Assembly (NCBI GenBank): GCA_022865265.1
Contig: JALIDO010000003.1
Span: 1 to 34,868 of the forward strand
Reading direction: 5' to 3'
DNA length: 34,868 bases
Source of the DNA: Candidatus Nanohalarchaeota archaeon QJJ-5
GTDB taxonomy: Archaea > Nanohalarchaeota > Nanosalinia > Nanosalinales > Nanoanaerosalinaceae
Every line of letters starts with the position of its first letter. The first letter of the stretch is position 1. Under the pieces are notes generated by a model, which was not told the DNA's origin, searched no databases, and saw only the letters and a program-made list of their open reading frames with translations. The translations under genes were made by a program, and so were the position numbers. Shown here piece by piece: positions 21,696 through 34,868 of the stretch.

Positions 21696-21830
21696 GACCG
21701 ATGCATCGATGAACGAGGTCGGTTCACCATAGAAGGTCGTGCCACATTGCATGCACCTGAATTGAAGGTTTTCAGGGTCTTTTTCCTCGATATTGGCTGT
21801 ACCGCACTGTGGACACGTATTCATGGTCAT
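21693..21830 (-). CDS. 45-aa CPxCG zinc-finger microprotein (not in ORF track)
   Basis: MTMNTCPQCGTANIEEKDPENLQFRCMQCGTTFYGEPTSFIDASV*; GGTGG upstream. Confidence 0.8.
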   Translation of the reverse strand: MTMNTCPQCGTANIEEKDPENLQFRCMQCGTTFYGEPTSFIDASV

Positions 21831-21937
21831 TGGTACCACCCGTACGTGTCAATCGATATTCATGGAGGTTCCTGGATTTAAAGATTATCCTGGATATAAC
21901 CGGTGTGTTGAAAAATACTGCTCGTGGTGGTATATGT

Positions 21938-22837
21938 ATGCGAGCTGATGCGGTACTTGATGCTCTTGGATATGACTATGACCATGTGGAACAGGATGAA
22001 CCGACTGAGGCCTGTGATGCGGCCGCGGACCAGCGTGGTCTGGAGACCGGCCAGATTGTCAAGAGTCTGATTGTCAGTATCGATGGGCAAGACTATCATC
22101 TTTTGGTACCAGGTGACAGGCAGCTCTCGGAACGGAAGGTCGGTTCGTATAGGCTCGTGGAGCCTGATCGGTCGACAGAGTTGACAGGCTGTGAACCAGG
22201 CACGGTACACCCATTTGCATCTGAGCTTCCGCATCGTGTGGATTATCGGTTGTTCCTGAATGAAGAGGTATCGTTCACTGTCGGGAATCGACAGGAGGGC
22301 GTCATCATCGATGCTGAGCGGTTCCGTGATGCTTTGGATGATGAGGATTTTGAATGGGTCGAGGATGATCTGGTCTCGTTCACCGAGCAGGATGTCCGTG
22401 CTCTTGATAGCTATGAACTAGATGAAGAGACTGCAACGTTCATCGCGAAGGAAGGATACACTCGTGTCTTTGAACAGCTTGTTGATGATGTCTCGATCAG
22501 TGATCTCGTGATGGCGATCGAGTCACTACACCGTGAGGAGGTGTCAGTTTCCCCGATGCTGGTGGATGAGCTCATCGAGCGGGCTGAGGGAGAGACCCAC
22601 ATGCAACGGCTTGCTGCTCATCGTGCAGAACATGGGGAGTGGCCGGAAGACGTCTCATATGATCTTGATGCTATCATTACAGAGATCCTGACGGAGCATG
22701 AAAATGCTGTCCAGGATTACAGAGATGGAAAATCTTCGGCTGTGAACTTCCTGATGGGGCAGGTGATGAATGAGACACAGGGTCAGGCTGATCCAGGATC
22801 GGTCAGGCGTGAACTTATGTCCCGGCTTGAGGATTAG
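21938..22837 (+). CDS. YbaK/EbsC aminoacyl-tRNA deacylase domain fused to a C-terminal GatB/Yqey domain
   Basis: QIVKSLIV and TGCEPGTVHPF (YbaK); VQDYRDGKSSAVNFLMGQVMNETQGQADP (GatB/Yqey). Confidence 0.85.
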   Translation: MRADAVLDALGYDYDHVEQDEPTEACDAAADQRGLETGQIVKSLIVSIDGQDYHLLVPGDRQLSERKVGSYRLVEPDRSTELTGCEPGTVHPFASELPHRVDYRLFLNEEVSFTVGNRQEGVIIDAERFRDALDDEDFEWVEDDLVSFTEQDVRALDSYELDEETATFIAKEGYTRVFEQLVDDVSISDLVMAIESLHREEVSVSPMLVDELIERAEGETHMQRLAAHRAEHGEWPEDVSYDLDAIITEILTEHENAVQDYRDGKSSAVNFLMGQVMNETQGQADPGSVRRELMSRLED

Positions 22838-25177: not shown

Positions 25178-25405
25178 GTGATCGGGCAGTTAGTCAGGGT
25201 GCCTTTCTGTGAACATATGTACTTCATCAAGAACCCTGTCTGGTCTGATCACTATCGCTCGGCTGTCAGAACTTTTATATATCGTTCATGAGAAATTGAG
25301 GTCTGCCTTCTGTGGGGGGAAGGTTCGAAAGGGTTGTGCGAGAGGGAGGTTTTTGACGCACCTCATCTATTGTCCCTCTTGCCGTTTCCTACCCTTTCTC
25401 TTTTT
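25178..25405 (+). ncRNA. candidate structured non-coding RNA(s): two long hairpins
   Basis: Stems at 25178-25252 and 25327-25398 with G.U pairs on the + strand, TTTTATATAT at 25273-25282 and a T-tract ending at 25405. Confidence 0.4.
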
Positions 25406-26520
25406 CAACATTCTTCGATGATCGTTCTGATATGATCGAGTGGCGCATTTGTTCTGATACCAGTATCTTCGAAATGAGAACGGACTGCATTGTATCCTCG
25501 TTCTTCAAAGGCCCTGAGAAGGTCTTCGATAGCAGGTGCAGGTACATTGTAGGTGGCTGCAAGGTCATGAGTGTCATAGTACGGTGTTGATATCGGTATT
25601 TCGGTGATGAGCCTATCCAAAAGAGCTGTAGCATCATCGAACCCGCGTTCGGTGCAGTTGTCTCGTGTCTGTTCGATGAACTCTGTTCGTCCGAGATGAC
25701 CGATCCAGGTCGGCCCGATTCTGTTCAGGTCCGTCTCGCAGTAAGGACATGTTGTTTCTTCTACGTTTGGTTCCATGGTCCGATAACAGCAATCAGGGCA
25801 GGCCAGGATATAGCCGATCTTGTCCAGTGACCGGTTAACCCCTTTCTTCGATTCACGGACAGTCCCATTGAGACGATAGTAGTGTTTCTGTGCAAAACTG
25901 AGCTGGGGTCTGAATACCATGTCTCGTCTCGCAAATGCTTCAAAGACCGCCTTGATCAATGTCCGGATCCCGACCTCGTGCTGGAAGCTTGTCTTGTGCA
26001 TCCATGTTCCGTACCGGCGTCGACAGGTCTTCGTATAGCTGCCACAGAGGGTGGCAAGGTCTGTCGCTGTGATACCGAGAAAGGCTTCATGATTGGCTCC
26101 TCGAGCCGCTGCATCAAGGAACGGGACTGGTGATCCGAAGGGATCGATATCGATGATATCGTATTGCCCGGCTTCGGTGGTCATATGGATAACCGCATCA
26201 GTGTGTTCGATATCGATATCCATGCCCGCATTGAGTTCATTGTTCTGTTCCATGTTCTCGATCGCATTTGGATTGGTGTCTGTGGCCTTGATAGATTGTA
26301 GACCAGTGGTCTCGTTCGCATACCGGAATGCACGGACACCAGATGCGGCCAGAGCATCGATCAGAGAAAGTTCTCGCTCCTGTCCATCGATGTATGATTG
26401 GACCGCTGCGACGGAGATATCTCTGTTCAGGATCATATCTGTATTGTAGAAGACCTCATCATCCGCTGTTGGTTCTTCTGCCGGATCGAGGTCGAGGCTG
26501 ACCGAGCGTTCGTCTATCAT
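25405..26520 (-). CDS. trm1: tRNA (guanine-26-N2)-dimethyltransferase
   Basis: VFYN..M..NRDIS, DALAASGVRAFRY, DIIDIDPFGSP, ITATD, HEVGIR, CPDC/CPYC, GPTW and RSHF..TGIRTNAP. Confidence 0.95.
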   Translation of the reverse strand: MIDERSVSLDLDPAEEPTADDEVFYNTDMILNRDISVAAVQSYIDGQERELSLIDALAASGVRAFRYANETTGLQSIKATDTNPNAIENMEQNNELNAGMDIDIEHTDAVIHMTTEAGQYDIIDIDPFGSPVPFLDAAARGANHEAFLGITATDLATLCGSYTKTCRRRYGTWMHKTSFQHEVGIRTLIKAVFEAFARRDMVFRPQLSFAQKHYYRLNGTVRESKKGVNRSLDKIGYILACPDCCYRTMEPNVEETTCPYCETDLNRIGPTWIGHLGRTEFIEQTRDNCTERGFDDATALLDRLITEIPISTPYYDTHDLAATYNVPAPAIEDLLRAFEERGYNAVRSHFEDTGIRTNAPLDHIRTIIEEC

Positions 26521-26527
26521 CGGCTAC

Positions 26528-27766
26528 CTACTCATCATCAGTCTCGAGTTCCTGATCCCGGACGGTCGGCCGAGTGCCTTTTGCTTCTTTCTTTGCGGAT
26601 TCGGCGATCTGGTCCGTATTCAATGATGGCGTCATGTCCTGTGCCTCTTGTTCGGCATCCTGTTTCTCTTTGATATCTTCACCGACCTTCGATGCGAACT
26701 CTTTGGTTTCTTCTTTGAGTTCCATGAGTTCAGTATCGTCCAGCTCATCGAGTTTCTTGTCTTTGACCATGCTGATGACGTCATCCCAGCGGTCGAACAG
26801 TTCGCGGTGGTCTTCACCGAAATCGAGTTCTTCATCGACCACATCCGGCAGATCTTCTTTGTCTTCCGGTGGTTCGATGCCTTCTGATTTGAGAGCGGCT
26901 ACATTAGCCTTCAGGAACGTCTTGTAGTCATCGACGACATCTTTGACTTTTCGCTGTGAACCAAGTTCGCTGACTAGCTTGTGCATCCGTCGGATGAAAT
27001 CATCGGTCATCTCGAGATGTTCTTCAACTTCTTCGGCTGTGACCTCATCAGGGTGTTTCTCGCCCTTGTTGCCGAATTCATGGATCTGTTCAGCCATGTC
27101 TGCATATTTCTCCTCGAGCAGATCTTTTTCGACGAATAGTTCACGCAGTGCCTTGGCTACATCTTCCTTGTTCGGTGGTGTCTTGCCGATATACATGATC
27201 GGGGCTTGGCCAGCGTTCGCGATCGCCTGTTCCAGATTATGTGGGATACTCTGTCGCATCTTCTTGTCGCTTTTCTTGTAGCCAGCTGCCGCCATCTTGA
27301 GTCGTTTCTTGACGGCTTCTTCTGATGATGAGATCTTCCCACGTTCGAGCATCCGTTTCGCAGGCATGAATACGCCAACGTCATAGACCGGTTCTCCTTT
27401 CCGGAGCACACCGATGATCAACGGCTCGCCCTTTCTGATCGAATCCCAGAAGTCTGTCAGGAAGGAGAAATACTGGATGGTGATACGATCATCGGTCTCT
27501 TTCGCGAGCTTGGTGACCTTTTTCCTGATCTTGTCTTTGGCTTCGTCTGGAACATCTTTATCGAGCTTTGTATCATCCAGGACAACGAATGTATCGATAT
27601 CTGACTCATGTGTATGGCGTCCATCGGGCACAGATCCATAGACGGCGACACACATGACCTTGTCGCCGAGTTTTTCTTTCAACAGATCAGCGAATTCTTC
27701 GACTTTTTCGAATCGGCGTTCCTGTGATTTCTGACGGGCTTCCTGGAGCTTGTCTTTTGAACTCAT
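26528..27766 (-). CDS. minimal nucleotidyltransferase (Pol-beta superfamily) fused to HEPN-like helical domain(s)
   Basis: YGS-x10-DIDTFVVLDD motif; C-terminal helical regions with PPNKED and PPEDKED. Confidence 0.82.
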   Translation of the reverse strand: MSSKDKLQEARQKSQERRFEKVEEFADLLKEKLGDKVMCVAVYGSVPDGRHTHESDIDTFVVLDDTKLDKDVPDEAKDKIRKKVTKLAKETDDRITIQYFSFLTDFWDSIRKGEPLIIGVLRKGEPVYDVGVFMPAKRMLERGKISSSEEAVKKRLKMAAAGYKKSDKKMRQSIPHNLEQAIANAGQAPIMYIGKTPPNKEDVAKALRELFVEKDLLEEKYADMAEQIHEFGNKGEKHPDEVTAEEVEEHLEMTDDFIRRMHKLVSELGSQRKVKDVVDDYKTFLKANVAALKSEGIEPPEDKEDLPDVVDEELDFGEDHRELFDRWDDVISMVKDKKLDELDDTELMELKEETKEFASKVGEDIKEKQDAEQEAQDMTPSLNTDQIAESAKKEAKGTRPTVRDQELETDDE

Positions 27767-27830: not shown

Positions 27831-30425
27831 TCAACGGTATTTTTCTTGTTCCCATTGTTCCGGCTGATTGTCCTGTTTCAGGGCAGCACGGCCGGTCCAT
27901 GTGTGATCTGGATTTTCCATGTACAGTAAGCCTTCAAGCGGGGCGAATGCGTTTTCAAAGATGGTCTCCCACTCATGATGCCATTCTTCATCGGTCAGTC
28001 CGAAGAACTTGAGGACGAGATAGTCTTTCAGGGTGAGGTCTTCGTTGCCTTTCTCATCGTATCGGTTCCAGGCCTCATCCACGTATTCGGTGGTCAGATC
28101 CTCAGGTGTGACGCCATGTTCGATCATATGCATCATCAGGCGCAGCATATAGGTGGACTCGGCTTTCTCTTCTCCGATCTCATACATCACGATGCTCGGT
28201 CGGTCATCGCGTTCACAGAAGCCACGTTCCACGAGAGAATACAGGTGTTCGAACACGATAGTGTCGCCACGTCTGATCGGCTGGTGATGGTGGCCGGTTT
28301 CGGAAAGTGCAGGATGCGTAACGTGTTGTTTTGTGATATAACGTCCATCACCATCTTCTAAACCTTCGAAATTATGTTCTTCATTGCCCTGGATTGTCCA
28401 GAGTGGATCAACGCCGTTCATGGCGAGATGTTCCATATCGATAGTACAGAACATGACATCATAGGTCTCACCGTTGATCTCGGTATTGTTGACCTCACGA
28501 CATACCTTGATGATGTCGCGTGGTTTCCAGAGTTTGCTCCGTCCTTCGCTCCCGACATTGTGCGATTCCCAGTCGAGTGTTAGTCCATGTTCATTCAGCA
28601 ACTCTACCAATGTCTTGTCTTGCCCGCGGCCGATGACCTGGGTGAACTGGCCCCACACATATGCAGCTGCACCGGCCGCATGGATCTTATCGTAGTCTTC
28701 TGAGTCTGCTAACTCGGCCAACCGTTCTTCGAAGGCATCCAGGTTATTCATACTGTATTCATCAGGATCGATGCCTGTGATCGCGTGCCATAACCGTTCG
28801 AGGTGCTCGTTGTCCGAAAACGGCATCCAGCGTGGCATGATCTCCCAGAAGATGTTCGATTCACGATTCATTTCATCCTGGAAGGCACCGCCACGGAAAT
28901 TGATGATATCACGGAACGCGACTTCGCCCTCGCTCATAGGATCATCATCTTTCATGAAGTAATCGCGGTTACCATCATACACTTCGGTCTCTTTCAGCCG
29001 TTCCTGTATCTCATCTTTCAGATCTTGCTTCAGTTTCTCATATACTGTATCCATTTCTTCATTGAGCCGTGCTTGGTCGCGTAGTGTATCGTCTCGGTCT
29101 TTCTCCCAGAATAGCTTCGGAATCATATGGATCCAGCGTGAGTTCGTATGCAGTTCTGGATCGAACCGAACCAGGGCCTGTGCGATGTTGGATCCTTCAC
29201 GATGCTTTTTCAGATCATCGAGACTCTCCGGGACATCCGATCTGACACCGGCCATCGTCTGGATAGCTGAGGTCCGGAGTTGATCATTCGTATTCTGAAA
29301 TCGCTGATTGTTCACATAGTGTTCCAAAAGGGATTCTTTATCTGGATACGCCTCATAGATGTCCTCACTATCGACAGCTGCCAGTGCACTTTGAAAGTCT
29401 TCCATGAGCTGGTTCAATTGATTCTGTAATAATTGTCTCTCCTGTGGGTCTGCTTCTGCAATCTGTTCCCGAAGATCATCCATCCTCGATTGGATGTCTT
29501 GGAGTTGTTCTTGGTGCTCGCCAGGTACGTTATTCACGAGGGCATCGATATCCATATCGTCTTGGTTACGGATGACTACTCTGCCAAGAGGAACGTCGAA
29601 TTCGACGATATCAGGGCGTTCATCTAATAGATATTTGAGATTTTCTACCATGTTTTCAGTTTCATCCAGATTGCTAACTGCTTCTAACATATCCTCTGTC
29701 AGATAACCGTCATCGCTCATGTGGTCGACGATGATCTTCCTTTGAAGGATGTTGAAGTCCGTATATCCTTCGATATCGTTTGCTATGCCCTGTAGTGTCT
29801 GGAAGTTATCTTTCAGTTCGCTTTCCCACAGATATTCCCGGAAGAAACTGACACGGAATTCTGGGCACTTGAAGATCCGTGACTCCATCATTTCGGTACC
29901 AAATGGATCGACTGACACTGATCCCGCCATGCGTTCTTCTCTTGCAGGGATTTCTGATTTCACGAGATGGGTATTGATACCATACACTGATTGCTGGTTC
30001 CCATTGACATCGGGTTCGCTTTCGATGGCGTCTTTGAAATCGCCCCAGGCATCGATGAAGTCATACATGAACTCATGACTGTAGTAAAAGCCCATCTGTT
30101 CGCGCTGTTCATAGTACGGGTTCGCATAATCGAACGGTATCTTGACCGGGAAATGGGCATCGAAGCTGAGTCCAAGCTGGCGTGACATCTGGATGAGCTG
30201 GTCCCATTCATTGTAGATCTGATTTGGGCCACCGAGATACATCTCGATGAAGCTCGCTCCCTGGTTCGAGGCCCAAGCGGCTCGTTTGTACAGTTCATCG
30301 GGAATGTCCGGGACGACATTCATGCCTGAAGAGACGGCAACGATATAGTTGAGATCCAGTGTCTTGTGCTGGTCCTGATTGATGAGTTGTCGGTACTGTT
30401 GTTTGACTTCTTGTTTTGTTGGCAT
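27831..30425 (-). CDS. large xylose-isomerase/AP-endonuclease-2-like TIM-barrel protein with helical insertion
   Basis: FIEM, FDAHFP, INTH; then LDWESH, CTIDMEH, KQHVTH, HHHQPI and MYEIG after a long helical/coiled-coil segment. Confidence 0.68.
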   Translation of the reverse strand: MPTKQEVKQQYRQLINQDQHKTLDLNYIVAVSSGMNVVPDIPDELYKRAAWASNQGASFIEMYLGGPNQIYNEWDQLIQMSRQLGLSFDAHFPVKIPFDYANPYYEQREQMGFYYSHEFMYDFIDAWGDFKDAIESEPDVNGNQQSVYGINTHLVKSEIPAREERMAGSVSVDPFGTEMMESRIFKCPEFRVSFFREYLWESELKDNFQTLQGIANDIEGYTDFNILQRKIIVDHMSDDGYLTEDMLEAVSNLDETENMVENLKYLLDERPDIVEFDVPLGRVVIRNQDDMDIDALVNNVPGEHQEQLQDIQSRMDDLREQIAEADPQERQLLQNQLNQLMEDFQSALAAVDSEDIYEAYPDKESLLEHYVNNQRFQNTNDQLRTSAIQTMAGVRSDVPESLDDLKKHREGSNIAQALVRFDPELHTNSRWIHMIPKLFWEKDRDDTLRDQARLNEEMDTVYEKLKQDLKDEIQERLKETEVYDGNRDYFMKDDDPMSEGEVAFRDIINFRGGAFQDEMNRESNIFWEIMPRWMPFSDNEHLERLWHAITGIDPDEYSMNNLDAFEERLAELADSEDYDKIHAAGAAAYVWGQFTQVIGRGQDKTLVELLNEHGLTLDWESHNVGSEGRSKLWKPRDIIKVCREVNNTEINGETYDVMFCTIDMEHLAMNGVDPLWTIQGNEEHNFEGLEDGDGRYITKQHVTHPALSETGHHHQPIRRGDTIVFEHLYSLVERGFCERDDRPSIVMYEIGEEKAESTYMLRLMMHMIEHGVTPEDLTTEYVDEAWNRYDEKGNEDLTLKDYLVLKFFGLTDEEWHHEWETIFENAFAPLEGLLYMENPDHTWTGRAALKQDNQPEQWEQEKYR

Positions 30426-30435
30426 CTGGTGTCAC

Positions 30436-31827
30436 CTACTTCATCACGTACAGTCCGACATCGTATTTCAGCGAGATGTAGAGGGCTGCTGATCCACCGA
30501 ATTTCGGCCCGAGAAGGCCTTCACGGAGATCGGATGGGTCAACATGATAGTACGCATCACCTTTGCCTGCCCAGAACAGGAGCCGTCGCTGGAGTTCATC
30601 GAGGAATGACGGATCATAGGGGGTATATTCCTTATCAGTATGTTTCTGGATATCTGGTGCAATATCGTCTCCCACATACTCGGTGATATATCGTTTGACC
30701 TCGTTCTTTCGTTCATCGATCTGTGGCTGGAAGACCTCCTGGAAGACATGTTCACAGACCACATACTCTTTGAAATTGATCTTCATGACCTCACCCCCCT
30801 GGCCCGGGGACTGTGGCTGTTCAGAGCCTCCGAGGGAAATGTGGGTCGCATCAAGGATAACGACGTCTCGGTGCGTGACGACATCTTCGCCTTCATCATT
30901 TTCTGCTTCCCGGACAGGTTTATGGCAGATGACTTTGATGCCCCGGACAGACGAGGAATATCCTTCCATCATGTACGGATCGGACATCTCTGAGACTTTC
31001 GCTTCGGGGTCGCCTTCCATCTGCTGGATGGTCTGTACATACGGTTTGATCCAGTTCTCGGTCTGTTCGATCGATGTTTCGACCGATTTCAACCGGCGTT
31101 TGACTTCCCGGACCTTATCCTCGATCGCATCGGCATACCGATCTTTCCATTGTTCATAGAGCTTCCACTTCTTCCTGAGGATTGCTTTTTCCTGTTCGGG
31201 AAGATCACTCAGGTGTCCATCGCCTTTGAGATCATCGAGTGATTCCATGCTGTAGAAATCAGCCGTGATCGATGGGAAAATATCATTAGCAGTCATCTGG
31301 AGGATGCTGGCACGACCGGTATGTTGGTCGACCTCATCGACGAAATCGCCTTTGAGTGCTTCTTCTTTCCGATCTTCGAAGTGTTCGAGTTTCTCCTCGA
31401 GCATCCGTTCATCGTGTTCCAGCAGTTCCTTTTTCTCATAGAGTTCCTCGAGGTTCGCCAATGTCCTGCCGATCTGTTGTTCGGCCTGCTGGCGGCGTTG
31501 CTCCATCTCATGGTGGAGCTGAGACCCGGGGTTCGCATGAAGCCATTCACCAACTTTGCTGACCTCATATCCGAATTGGGTATCGAGGAGATCGACAGTC
31601 GCAAGATATGTGTCCACAGGAAGCCCCTGTGTCGCATCTGAAACCTTGATAAGCCTATTATGTGGTTCATCATGTGTTGCCCCTACATATGGTTCGCCGC
31701 TCGGCTGATTTTCATCGATCCATTCTTGTGCGGCTCCTGGTCCTTCTGTCCGGGCGATTTCACGAATTTTATCGATATTTGCCGGGTAACATCCATGCAT
31801 ACATCGATCCTCGGCTCCTTTTGTCAT
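30436..31827 (-). CDS. coiled-coil-rich protein of unknown function
   Basis: Heptad-like segments EMEQRRQQAEQQIGRTLANLEEL.. and VREVKRRLKSVETSIEQTENWIKPY; GGTGAG upstream; 10-nt gap to next gene. Confidence 0.85.
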   Translation of the reverse strand: MTKGAEDRCMHGCYPANIDKIREIARTEGPGAAQEWIDENQPSGEPYVGATHDEPHNRLIKVSDATQGLPVDTYLATVDLLDTQFGYEVSKVGEWLHANPGSQLHHEMEQRRQQAEQQIGRTLANLEELYEKKELLEHDERMLEEKLEHFEDRKEEALKGDFVDEVDQHTGRASILQMTANDIFPSITADFYSMESLDDLKGDGHLSDLPEQEKAILRKKWKLYEQWKDRYADAIEDKVREVKRRLKSVETSIEQTENWIKPYVQTIQQMEGDPEAKVSEMSDPYMMEGYSSSVRGIKVICHKPVREAENDEGEDVVTHRDVVILDATHISLGGSEQPQSPGQGGEVMKINFKEYVVCEHVFQEVFQPQIDERKNEVKRYITEYVGDDIAPDIQKHTDKEYTPYDPSFLDELQRRLLFWAGKGDAYYHVDPSDLREGLLGPKFGGSAALYISLKYDVGLYVMK

Positions 31828-32044
31828 CTTCTCACCAGTATATCCCGTTATTTAGGTGCGGCCTCATAAGAATGTATCGCTCACAGTTGATTGTTCTAGA
31901 CAGTTCGACAGGTGTATCCTACAAGGACATTCAGGTCTAGGATATACCTAAGGTGTCATCGTTACGCTTGATGATACTGAACTGATGATTGTACTGGATG
32001 ATTTGGCCAAAATTTAATATTCAGGTAGCTGAAAGAGATATACC

Positions 32045-32743
32045 ATGGGACTCGTGGACGATATCAAGGATAAAGTCGGAGATGAGAATACTGGGTCAGA
32101 CTCACAGGTTCGACGCCCACCAAAGAAACCTGGACAGGATAACAACACTAACAGAACCAGACAACAGGGATCACAGCAGTCACAGACTGGTCAGCGTCGC
32201 GGATCAAACCAGCGACAGGGCCAGAGCCGCGGGCAACAACAGAATCAGCGCGGTGGTTCCCAGCATCAAGGACGATCTGGTGGGCAGAATCAACGCCAAC
32301 AGTCCTCCCACCAATCACAGCAATCATCTCAGCCACGTCGTGGGCCTGGCGCAGAACAGGGGCCGCCTGACAGCCAGGGGCCGGACAGTCTCTCAGCACC
32401 AGGTCCGGCAGAGAATTCATCGGGCTCAGGCCGCGGTTCAGCAAATCCAGGTCCGACGGCGAACACATCACGTGGGCCGGAAGGTGGTCTCGATGATCTC
32501 GATGATCTTGGGTCCGCAGATGATCTTGGACAGAGTGAATCACCACCGGGTAATAGTCGGAGCCCTGAGGCATCTCTCAGAGATGATCCTGGTCCGGGTA
32601 ATGATATCACGCCGCCAGGGATGGATACCGATCGTGGATCATCAAGCGGCGAGCCGGACATGAGTCAGTTACAACAGCAGAATCAACAGATCATAAACCT
32701 TCTTGAAGATATTCGTGATGCACTGGAGCGACAACCGCGATGA
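32045..32743 (+). CDS. low-complexity (Q/G/S/P/D-rich) disordered protein, paralog 1
   Basis: MGLVDDIKDKV start; C-terminal QNQQIINLLEDIRDALE; TTTAATA at about 32013. Confidence 0.8.
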   Translation: MGLVDDIKDKVGDENTGSDSQVRRPPKKPGQDNNTNRTRQQGSQQSQTGQRRGSNQRQGQSRGQQQNQRGGSQHQGRSGGQNQRQQSSHQSQQSSQPRRGPGAEQGPPDSQGPDSLSAPGPAENSSGSGRGSANPGPTANTSRGPEGGLDDLDDLGSADDLGQSESPPGNSRSPEASLRDDPGPGNDITPPGMDTDRGSSSGEPDMSQLQQQNQQIINLLEDIRDALERQPR

Positions 32744-33090
32744 AGATCTTTGATAAACTCAATGACGACAATGAGGATGAAGAAGTAGAGCTCAAGCCAG
32801 ATACGCGGTTGAAAGATGAGGTGGCAGCCCGCACACAGGATCGGGGATCATCATCGACTTCGACAGATGATGAAAGCGAGTCCCTTCTACCTGGTGCTGT
32901 TGGTGGTAGCGATACTACATCGGATCGTGGACGTGTATCCTCATCCACAAAGACGGATGGTGATCTCGAGGAACAGATCAAGACCGTGATCGAGCAGAAT
33001 GAACGTATAATCGAACTGCTCGAGACCATCTCATCCGTGTCCTCGGGATCGACGAATCGTTCTAGTGATGGCAAGGACGAATTATGGTGA
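32740..33090 (+). CDS. acidic disordered protein, paralog 2
   Basis: MKIFDKLND start; QNERIIELLETI; ATGA overlap with the previous gene. Confidence 0.8.
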   Translation: MKIFDKLNDDNEDEEVELKPDTRLKDEVAARTQDRGSSSTSTDDESESLLPGAVGGSDTTSDRGRVSSSTKTDGDLEEQIKTVIEQNERIIELLETISSVSSGSTNRSSDGKDELW

Positions 33091-33102
33091 CGGCTGATAG
33101 TC

Positions 33103-33576
33103 ATGTCGTTTTATGATAGTGTCAAAGATCGTGTGCGTGATGATGAGACAGATGAAGACGATGATACGGAATCAAGTGGTGGTACAATGGCATTCGATGA
33201 ACTAGTGAAGAAAGCAGAACAACAAGACGATGATGAGGAAGAACAACAAGATGATACAGAGATCGAGGACTTTTCCGGTGGTGGCAGTGGTGGATCAAAG
33301 GATTATGGAGATCCATCGAGCATCGAGCTGAATGAAGAGACAGAACCACAGGCGGGAGATGGGTCGAGTGAGCCCTCATCGTCTGAGGACAAGGACGATG
33401 ATGAGGTCGAAATCCATAGTGATGGTTCTGTTACACCCCCCGGAGAGCAAGAACAGCATGAGCAAGAGCAGAAACCTGTTGATGGAGATGGTGATGTCAT
33501 CGCACTGCTCCAGGAAATCCGTAATCAGAACGACCAGATTATCAGTGTACTTCGCGATATCCGCGAACGCATGTAA
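33103..33576 (+). CDS. acidic disordered protein, paralog 3
   Basis: MSFYDSVKDRV start; LLQEIRNQNDQIISVLRDIRERM. Confidence 0.8.
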   Translation: MSFYDSVKDRVRDDETDEDDDTESSGGTMAFDELVKKAEQQDDDEEEQQDDTEIEDFSGGGSGGSKDYGDPSSIELNEETEPQAGDGSSEPSSSEDKDDDEVEIHSDGSVTPPGEQEQHEQEQKPVDGDGDVIALLQEIRNQNDQIISVLRDIRERM

Positions 33577-33587
33577 GGGTGTTTTTA

Positions 33588-34301
33588 GTGACAGAACGGA
33601 TCTATATGGAAGATTGCTATGCTGAGACGGTCTCGACACAGGTCGAAGCTATAAGGGCTGGTGGTATTGTCCTCAGTGAGACTGTTTTTTACCCAGAGGG
33701 CGGTGGTCAGCCTGCAGATCAGGGCGTGATCAACGTCGGTGGGACGTCCATCCAGGTTACAGACGTTTCCGTCGATCACGGGGAAATTCTCCATCATGTC
33801 GAATCGACAGATCCAATCACGGAGGGGGATGATGTGGATGCGAGGATCGACTGGGAGCGTCGTCATATGTTGATGCGTATGCATACAGCCCAGCATCTTC
33901 TCAGTGCTGTTGTTCTGGATATGTTTGATGCAAAAACTGTCGGTAATCAGATCCATCCGTCATATTCCCGTATTGATTTCGAGCCGGTAAATTTCAGTCA
34001 AAAGGATCTCGATCGGATCGAACGTCGTTGTAATGCCTTGATTGAAGAAGAACGGTCTGTATCGATCTATGAAGAAGACCGGGAAACTGTTGTTGAGAAA
34101 CTGCCAGTAGGACGATCGAACCTCGACCTCATACCAGATCATATCGATCCGTTGCGGGTTGTCGAGATTGAAGGTCTCGATATCTGTCCCTGTGGTGGGA
34201 CACATGTGAGCAATCTCGATGAGATTGGTCGATTCATCATCGAAGACAGGAAAAGCAAAGGCGAGGACATCGATCGTATCGAGTTCAGTCTCGATGCATG
34301 A
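33588..34301 (+). CDS. alaX: free-standing alanyl-tRNA editing protein (AlaX-M type)
   Basis: TVFYPEGGGQPAD, MRMHTAQH (HxxxH) and CPCGGTH (CxxxH); GTG start at 33588 gives MTERIY. Confidence 0.93.
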   Translation: MTERIYMEDCYAETVSTQVEAIRAGGIVLSETVFYPEGGGQPADQGVINVGGTSIQVTDVSVDHGEILHHVESTDPITEGDDVDARIDWERRHMLMRMHTAQHLLSAVVLDMFDAKTVGNQIHPSYSRIDFEPVNFSQKDLDRIERRCNALIEEERSVSIYEEDRETVVEKLPVGRSNLDLIPDHIDPLRVVEIEGLDICPCGGTHVSNLDEIGRFIIEDRKSKGEDIDRIEFSLDA

Positions 34302-34868
34302 CTTCAAGGCACTTGTGCGGTCAGTGTGGGAACGCAGTTTTGATGGGGAAAACCGTCGGTACCACCGATTCAGAACAGCAGATAGCGGATCGACACTGGT
34401 TGCCGATTGTATTGGATCAAATCTCCGATGTGCCCACGAGTGGGGATGGTGTGAAGGGATTCTTGATGATCCATCAGCTGGCCGACTTGTATCGCCTGAT
34501 GAGATCGTGAACCGAGCTAAGGACTGTGATGCAACGGCAGTACGTGTCACAGGGATGGAACCCGTGATGCATGATCGTCATCTCCTCCAGCTGGCAGAGA
34601 CCATTCCTGAGAGCATGACCTTGCGGATCGAAACCAACGGGATGTTACTTGGTGGAGCATACATGCGTGCTCTGACTGATCGCTGTGATTGTCATGTCCG
34701 GCTCTCGTTCAAGGGAAGCGATCCGGAACAGTTCAGCAAGCTGGCTAGGGTAGATCAACGGTATTTTCAGAATCAGGTCCAGTCATTCCACGCGATACGG
34801 AAAGCTGAGTGCAGCATTGAGCTGGCTCTTGCTGGTGTCTATGATGAGGAAGATGCAAAAAAGCTTGG
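34294..34868 (+). CDS. radical-SAM-superfamily homologue with degenerate cluster motif (runs off window; not in ORF track)
   Basis: MHDFKALV..RRYHRFR..ADCIGSNLRCAHEWGWC..SPDEIV..RVTGMEP..RIETNG..VRLSFKG; open to window end; overlaps alaX stop. Confidence 0.8.
   Translation, partial: MHDFKALVRSVWERSFDGENRRYHRFRTADSGSTLVADCIGSNLRCAHEWGWCEGILDDPSAGRLVSPDEIVNRAKDCDATAVRVTGMEPVMHDRHLLQLAETIPESMTLRIETNGMLLGGAYMRALTDRCDCHVRLSFKGSDPEQFSKLARVDQRYFQNQVQSFHAIRKAECSIELALAGVYDEEDAKKL

Follow-up and report, generated by a model that had tools for sequence, protein, structure and literature searches.

Results

Three adjacent genes with a common layout

The window analysed here is the whole stretch of 34,868 nucleotides (nt) that makes up contig C33 (JALIDO010000003.1) of Candidatus Nanohalarchaeota archaeon QJJ-5, whose genome, 80% complete, amounts to 701 kb in 48 contigs. 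Towards its end, three genes follow each other on the forward strand, and are called A, B and C below. A (32045-32743) encodes a protein of 232 amino acids (aa), with an N-terminal helix (MGLVDDIKDKVG), a disordered region that is first Q/G/S/R-rich and then D/P/G-rich, a zipper helix (32654-32731, residues ~204-229) and a basic C-terminal end. The product of B (32740-33090) is an acidic protein of 116 aa, in which MKIFDKLND, the motifs EEVELKP and LLPG, a zipper helix (32971-33033, residues ~78-98) and an acidic tail ending in W116 succeed each other. C (33103-33576) encodes a 157-aa protein of net charge -40, where MSFYDSVKDRV, AFDEL, DDTEIEDFSGGG, DYGDPSSIEL and QAG precede a zipper helix (33499-33573, residues ~133-157) that terminates the protein. 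An initial annotation of this DNA had listed the three tandem reading frames with their N-termini and C-terminal motifs, and its coordinates and sequences are exact. Its description of the products as paralogues made of a helix, a disordered region and a second helix was borne out as well.

Loci of relatives were collected using as an anchor the gene of a 463-aa protein, which is divergent from A and present in 39 of 41 relatives. Thirty-two more loci were fetched, giving 33 with the window, 14 outside and 19 inside one family of the phylum, labelled f3. Outside f3, A, B and C are adjacent in 13 of the 14 loci, with ATGA overlaps or gaps of ~20 nt or less; only L024 departs from this, with A and C at the locus and a B-like match on a different contig. 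In f3, B and C overlap as a pair wherever both frames were read.

In the window, the start codon of B overlaps the stop codon of A as ATGA. About 30 nt upstream of the A start codon, reading of the sequence reveals a TATA-like box, AAATTTAATATT (32010-32021, forward strand). A similar box, GTTTTAATAT or CTTTAATCAAC, is found at positions -31 to -35 of A in the window and in L022, L023, L036, L039 and L042, which represent two families, and box-like strings are also present upstream of A in L035, L040 and L044, though our script did not flag them. B and C have no such box; they start -4 to ~20 nt from the preceding gene, with GGTG-type ribosome sites ahead of them in some lineages. Because all three genes adjoin, with a box only before A and short spacing before B and C, the arrangement points to a single transcript. 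Following the general geometry of archaeal promoters, the box at 32010-32021 is likely to be the promoter of a leaderless or short-leader A-B-C transcript.

Distribution of the family

Profiles were searched against the 70 genomes of the phylum. The B profile (A3) matched 62 of them at E<=0.01, and the C profile (A6) 60 at E<=1e-5. Each profile matched all 28 genomes that are at least 90% complete, the misses falling in incomplete ones. The initial annotation had named in advance the conservation of the motif in relatives as one of the points on which its proposal should stand or fall, and the motif is conserved.

Beyond this set, searching 5.8 billion proteins with the B profile returned 53 clusters, in which every named member is a hypothetical protein of Candidatus Nanohaloarchaea or Nanohaloarchaeota and none has a Pfam domain. 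A full HMMER pass of the C profile over 1.84 billion representatives gave 102 matches, all 53-232 aa long. Thirteen of the 23 weakest (E 4.5e-12 to 4.9e-4) were inspected, and all 13 have the C-terminal helix with its QN pair (QN helix) and are recognisable as A-, B- or C-type. With C as query, the ESM Atlas contained a single near cluster (score 0.86, 80 archaeal members, 140 aa), which is most likely the A/B/C family itself. Scans of A, B and C against Pfam and NCBIfam at E<=1 returned zero families. That whole-protein searches would miss these genes, as had been anticipated from the DNA alone, is therefore correct: the family is absent from Pfam and NCBIfam, and only nanohaloarchaeal hypothetical proteins were found. 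In the literature, we found no paper combining the terms Nanohaloarchaeota and intrinsically disordered, and a broader search gave nothing on these genes, the proteome supplements of culture papers lying outside its scope. We conclude that, by these profiles, the A/B/C family is core to Nanohaloarchaeota, confined to that phylum in everything searched, and undescribed in Pfam and NCBIfam.

One further protein came up with the B profile, at E 0.01. It is a 260-aa coiled-coil protein of locus L068 (4613-5395, forward strand), in which a DQNERIVDSLEQL stretch is followed by an R/Q/S/N/G-rich basic tail, and its gene adjoins others that resemble pilin or archaellin genes and encode class III signal peptides. 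The match may be due to chance, or the protein may be a distant fourth relative.

Selection on the three reading frames

Synonymous substitutions (dS) are saturated in most orthologue pairs, and L026/L027 is the sole unsaturated pair giving a reliable ratio of non-synonymous to synonymous substitution rates (dN/dS). For this pair, dN/dS is 0.26, 0.12 and 0.11 in A, B and C respectively. The disordered middles taken alone give 0.27 for A, 0.14 for B and 0.19 for C. The reading frames, their ends and their motifs are maintained across five families of the phylum. By these measures, the three genes are real and of the expressed type, and make up one paralogous family under purifying selection.

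The C-terminal helix and its zipper-like pattern

The three proteins carry the motifs QNQQIINLLEDI (A), QNERIIELLETI (B) and QNDQIISVLRDI (C) near their C-terminal ends. The pattern QNxx[ILVM][ILVM]xxLxx[ILVM] occurs four times in a six-frame translation of the 701-kb genome (995,224 residues in open segments of at least 30 aa), and three of these occurrences are those of A, B and C, a clustering that goes far past what chance would give. In a logo of 50 C-terminal helices, Q15, N16 and L23 are invariant. Positions 9, 12, 19, 23, 26 and 30 are hydrophobic and correspond to the a and d positions of ~3 heptads; positions 20 (e) and 22 (g) are hydrophobic too. The invariant asparagine occupies a core a position in 50 of 50 sequences (Asn213 in A, from the logo and a table made per paralogue). 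The C-terminal module is thus a single conserved helix of ~23 residues, which closes the protein in C and in the g5 orthologues of A.

Around this common core, each paralogue has its own residues. Position 24 is E in 13/13 B proteins and R or K in 14/14 C proteins; position 13 is hydrophobic in all 13 B proteins; position 8 is L, V or I in 13 of the 14 C proteins (T in the remaining one) and K or R in 11 of the 13 B proteins. The B helix also stops one heptad early, with a Gly cap. Such conserved, paralogue-specific flanking residues have the look expected of the non-equivalent chains of a hetero-oligomer. When the C-terminal segments A 190-232, B 66-116 and C 116-157 were submitted with alignments to complex prediction, scores of 0.18 and 0.25 were obtained, against a mark of 0.32 and without controls, an outcome that speaks neither for nor against an assembly.

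A lone asparagine in a zipper core fixes parallel, in-register pairing, and Asn16 of GCN4, at an a position, sets the dimeric state of that protein. The A/B/C helix resembles GCN4 in that its heptad repeat is short and has one invariant Asn, at a, halfway along the hydrophobic core. It differs in that the e and g positions beside the Asn layer are hydrophobic (I20, L22), and in that no basic DNA-binding region lies ahead of the helix. Where the e and g positions are hydrophobic, helices tend to form bundles of three or more or to be buried in a groove, and the A/B/C helix would accordingly pack with at least two others or lie in a groove.

The disordered middles and the tails

Order-promoting residues make up 0.11-0.17 of the A, B and C middles, versus 0.28-0.39 of seven other proteins of the window, five of which have a Pfam or NCBIfam family. 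The middles fall on the disordered side of a charge-hydropathy plot, and the ESM Atlas model of C has a mean predicted local distance difference test (pLDDT) of 0.51. The initial annotation had called these middles low-complexity tracts. Disorder is supported, but the tracts are not featureless, as short motifs specific to each paralogue are conserved in them. B keeps EEVELKP, LLPGM or, more loosely, [FL]LPG[MA], and an acidic tail ending in W; C keeps AFDxL, DDTxIExLSxGG, DYGDxSxIEL and QAG, and the distant f3 forms of C retain the first two of these as NFDTL and DDTPIEVLEE. The A middle is marked by RKPxKKPG within the window's family and, in f3, by PNAQAGRP..SEPQLSxQT..MENAGF. At the level of single residues, Q212, N213, I217, L220 and I223 are invariant among 21 orthologues of A; M1, E15, P20, P51, Q86, N87, I90, L94 and E95 among 12 of B; and K8, L136, I139, Q142, N143 and L150 among 20 of C.

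The C-terminal ends are also distinctive. A ends in R in 19 of 23 sequences and in RR in 16 of them, the window's copy ending in PR. B ends outside f3 in W or WG (11/13) or in L (2/13), and the f3 B-like proteins all end in L (9/9). C usually terminates with its zipper helix, and A and most C proteins lack a terminal aromatic residue in an acidic tail. As to overall composition, the fraction of G/P/Q/S/N in the A linker ranges from 0.35 to 0.76 and the isoelectric point of A from 4.3 to 10.6; net charge runs from -3 to -47 in C (-25 or lower in 8/13) and from -20 to +11 in B. A charge order of basic first and acidic second was considered as a family trait of A and discarded: the window's family shows it, whereas elsewhere it is missing or runs the other way.

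The N-terminal helix

The proteins begin with MGLVDDIKDKV (A), MKIFDKLND (B) and MSFYDSVKDRV (C), and the consensus M-[GSA]-[LFV]-[FYLV]-D-x-[IVL]-K-[DE]-x-[VIL] describes an amphipathic helix of 11-12 residues. Its hydrophobic moment is 0.39-0.49, and its mean net charge of -0.9 to +0.1 makes it neutral to acidic. A strict form of the pattern has only two occurrences genome-wide, where A and C begin. The lysine K8 does not vary in C, and its conservation in A is 90% or more.

Neighbouring genes

On the reverse strand, divergent from A, lies the gene of the 463-aa protein (30436-31827), which belongs to no known family and is a candidate partner of A, B and C by conserved neighbourhood only. 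A adjoins it in 23 of the 33 loci, i.e. in 14/14 outside f3 and 9/19 in f3. An AlphaFold2 (AF2) model (pLDDT 77, predicted template modelling score 0.70) predicts an alpha/beta N-terminus, a long helical hairpin, a long three-stranded sheet and C-terminal helices. Foldseek found no match to this model at E<=1e-3, the rows for ZapD/DUF1342 and EmrA being weak (TM 0.08-0.24). A wide VIA-align search gave only generic helical hairpins, with Z up to 11.1, below the level that is meaningful for long helices, and the ESM Atlas gave no usable match. Against 5.8 billion proteins, 42 clusters were recovered, with nanohaloarchaeal relatives only. Two relatives of the 463-aa protein carry a precomputed Pfam match to a BAR domain, probably a coiled-coil artefact.

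Directly downstream of this gene, on the same strand, is that of an 864-aa protein without family match (27831-30425). The two genes are adjacent in 30 of the 33 loci, and the remaining three loci end at a contig edge. A sequence search of the Protein Data Bank with both proteins gave nothing below E 0.06. The AF2 model of the 864-aa protein (pLDDT 79.6) has weak, consistent Foldseek matches to sugar isomerases/epimerases and endonuclease IV (best E 1.3e-2, probability up to 1.00), and 25 orthologues all share invariant His, Asp and Glu residues, relatives having been sought within the loci of the phylum only. Judging from the model, a TIM barrel of xylose-isomerase-like or endonuclease-IV-like type seems to be interrupted by a helical insertion of ~400 residues.

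The divergent genes upstream of A are those of the 463-aa protein, the 864-aa protein, a nucleotidyltransferase, which may be a CCA-adding enzyme, and Trm1. On the other side, an AlaXM-like alanyl-tRNA editing protein (33579-34301, forward strand; NCBIfam AlaXM, E 2.9e-74, 249.7 bits, under the 300-bit cut-off; Pfam tRNA_SAD) is encoded after C, with a start 3-30 nt beyond it, and possibly shares its transcript. AlaXM follows C in only 4 of the 33 loci (the window, L022, L023 and L029), and the link is therefore local. Genes related to tRNA are abundant nearby (21809-22837, forward; 25405-27766, reverse; 33579-34866, forward), and include a YbaK/ProX-type editing domain fused to a GatB_Yqey domain, Trm1, the nucleotidyltransferase, AlaXM and a radical SAM protein.

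In f3 the surroundings differ. A conserved block, seen in L054 (4276-8258) and in L055-L063, consists of genes for a zinc ribbon, a 159-aa protein without family, the B-like and C-like proteins, Amphi-Trp, a small transmembrane protein, OapC, OapB and OapA. Its order is identical in 10 of 10 loci, with the B-like gene found in 9 of them by tblastn or regular expressions. OapABC corresponds to ArvABC, a vesicle-forming system of Haloferax, in the excerpted account of PMC10927574. In ten other f3 loci (L041, L043, L045-L049 and L051-L053), sequence reading indicates that the place of A upstream of the 463-aa gene is held by a transmembrane coiled-coil protein, a 250-aa membrane protein and a MoxR-like AAA ATPase. 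The displaced f3 A genes adjoin TatD-like and NYN-like genes, as read from open reading frames. The link between A and the 463-aa gene is the only neighbourhood link that crosses families, and no link names a function.

Discussion

A proposed zipper-held hub of disordered proteins

The analysis establishes A, B and C as an authentic family of three disordered paralogues, not described before, that occurs in all the complete nanohaloarchaeal genomes searched and in nothing else that was searched. As to what they do, the reading that we favour, to which we give somewhat less than an even chance, is that they form a hub of disordered proteins, probably a hetero-oligomer, in which the C-terminal zipper holds the chains together and the arms and tails recruit partners. 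The C-terminal helices would pair as a short, parallel, in-register zipper, the register being set by the invariant core Asn. Because the e and g positions are hydrophobic, a bundle of more than two helices is suggested, and because each paralogue keeps its own conserved flanking residues, A, B and C probably join as a hetero-oligomer, most simply A:B:C. Such a hub would display three distinct arms, the G/P/Q/S-rich and partly basic one of A and the polyacidic ones of B and C, with linker motifs and end-tails that would recruit partners. The N-terminal helix common to all three may bind one shared target, either a protein or the membrane. By gene order, the sole candidate partner would be the neighbouring 463-aa coiled-coil protein.

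Several observations weigh against this proposal. The f3 family splits the trio, with A at one site and B-C at another, and three-gene operon linkage is not universal. A adjoins the 463-aa gene in only 9 of the 19 f3 loci, and the suggested partnership with that protein comes from gene order within one phylum, whose members are not independent. The heptad pattern makes plausible the oligomerising role that the initial annotation had given to the C-terminal helix, but oligomerisation itself is inferred from sequence. A lone helix of ~23 residues could equally dock into the groove of a folded partner. Finally, neither A nor C of this genome is found, as an exact sequence, in a collection of 15 billion proteins, in which B and the 463-aa protein are present.

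Alternative explanations

This last absence, together with the several long alternative frames that overlap A and C, is what might be expected if A, B and C were chance open frames in low-complexity DNA from which no protein is made. We give this practically no credence, as it is already contradicted by dN/dS values of 0.11-0.27 in the A/B/C frames; both termini and the internal motifs are conserved throughout the phylum, and none of eight alternative-frame products overlapping the three genes is in the same collection either. On a separate note, the deposited annotation may lack A and C or give them other calls, and the ESM Atlas does contain C. The main rival to the zipper hub, although an unlikely one in our estimation, is docking: the QN helix and/or the N-terminal helix of each paralogue would bind one folded partner rather than the other paralogues. 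The QN helix could for example pack on the helical hairpin of the 463-aa protein to give a three-helix bundle, and the paralogues would then be competing, alternative adaptors. The wide a/d/e/g hydrophobic face of the helix suits burial in a groove, the predicted structure of the 463-aa protein has an exposed hairpin of 50-60 residues, the divergent arrangement of A and this gene recurs in 23/33 loci from four families, and both gene families are confined to the same phylum. This is countered by f3, where B and C lie outside the neighbourhood of the 463-aa gene, as does A in 10 of 19 loci, and a hetero-oligomer would explain the differences between paralogues equally well.

Comparison with known systems leads to three further proposals. 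The initial annotation had seen in the locus a membrane-tethered, hetero-oligomeric scaffold or condensate of the PopZ type, serving polarity, division or host contact, with the N-terminal helix as a SepF-type anchor. In Pfam at E<=1, neither the family of PopZ, the polar organising protein Z of Caulobacter (DUF2497/PopZ), nor the domain of SepF, the membrane anchor of FtsZ (PF04472), matches A, B or C. In the excerpt of PMC9512792, PopZ has a short N-terminal helix, an acidic/proline-rich disordered linker and three C-terminal helices, H2-H4. A, B and C parallel this layout in having an N-terminal helix, then a disordered linker, then helical C-terminal residues that would drive self-assembly, in the same modular logic of actor, spacer and oligomeriser. 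The resemblance thus holds for the architecture, and not for family membership: PopZ is one gene with three C-terminal helices, whereas A, B and C are three co-inherited paralogues, each with a single ~3-heptad helix and a buried Asn; their linkers differ from one paralogue to the other and carry conserved short motifs; and they belong to another phylum and domain of life. As to the anchor, the N-terminal helix is amphipathic and followed by an acidic linker as in SepF, and the B stretch MKIFDKLNDDNEDEEVELKP loosely resembles by eye the start of the organism's SepF, MPFKKLLGNNDDE...DEYVELE: in the first 20 residues of B, as in that start, VEL comes after an amphipathic stretch and an acidic run. 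However, the helix is not cationic, unlike the MPFKKLLG with which that canonical SepF (contig C46, E 6.6e-12) begins, and SepF is found in 38 of 41 relatives, leaving no gap to fill. Even though A, as a blocky G/P/Q/S-rich polyampholyte beside two polyacids, could favour coacervation, we consider a PopZ-like scaffold improbable. Still less probable is a role as McdB-like cargo adaptors of a ParA/MinD ATPase, in which the near-invariant Lys of the N-terminal helix would stimulate the ATPase, and the acidic tail and Trp of B would hold the cargo. According to the excerpt of PMC11321042, McdB is disordered, its invariant C-terminal Trp in an Asp-rich tail binds cargo, and such adaptors contact ParA/MinD through basic N-terminal residues. 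Like McdB, A, B and C are disordered and polyampholytic or acidic, and have a coiled-coil element and an N-terminus that would contact a partner. The parallels are suggestive for B, whose acidic tail closes with W in 11/13 orthologues outside f3; K8 is strongly conserved in C and A, and the genome has one clear ParA/MinD-type gene, of the CbiA/ParA type. But that gene is on another contig (C2), with none in the window and no linkage to the trio; W is replaced by L in 9/9 f3 B-like proteins and 2/13 others; the N-terminal helix is not basic overall; no homology to McdB, nor to any known family in Pfam and NCBIfam, was seen; and the organism is not known to have a microcompartment cargo, no search having been aimed at one. 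Last, B and C might be coat- or tether-like disordered accessory factors of the small-GTPase vesicle system ArvABC (OapABC) at the membrane, since in 10/10 f3 loci the C-like gene, and in 9/10 the B-like gene, lies between the 159-aa gene and the AmphiTrp-transmembrane-OapC-OapB-OapA block, and OapA/ArvA drives the formation of Haloferax extracellular vesicles in the excerpt of PMC10927574. We regard this as the least probable of the three: B and C are convergent to the Oap block and so not in one transcript with it, the ten loci come from one family and are not independent, the Oap genes of the window's genome are on another contig, and no gene of the block was matched in the 10.9 kb around the window's trio, the window being the one locus outside f3 covered by this test.

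Returning to the zipper hub, a bolder version of it has only a slim chance of being right in our view: a phylum-specific A:B:C zipper, linking the blocky, partly basic G/P/Q/S/R-rich arm of A with the two polyacidic ones, would act as a self-contained coacervate or hub in a cytoplasm of multi-molar salt. The 463-aa coiled-coil protein and the split TIM-barrel enzyme would be the machine, specific to nanohaloarchaea, that it organises. At such salt concentrations, electrostatic condensation of the ordinary sort should be screened. If true, an assembly of this type would represent an archaeal scaffold of a new kind, on which phase separation at extreme ionic strength could naturally be tested.

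Significance

To our knowledge, Nanohaloarchaeota are obligate symbionts with genomes of ~1 Mb, in which few lineage-specific genes have been assigned a role. Here, no high-quality genome searched in the phylum lacks the three small genes, whose products are mostly disordered yet under purifying selection, and absent from Pfam and NCBIfam. The system is compact, as it comprises a 23-residue putative zipper with a single polar core layer, three disordered arms with mapped motifs, and two candidate neighbours. If A, B and C do not assemble, the family still merits a database entry. If they do, they would be the first described hetero-oligomeric disordered hub in a DPANN archaeon, and would give a handle on how the function of disordered regions survives in a salt-in cytoplasm.

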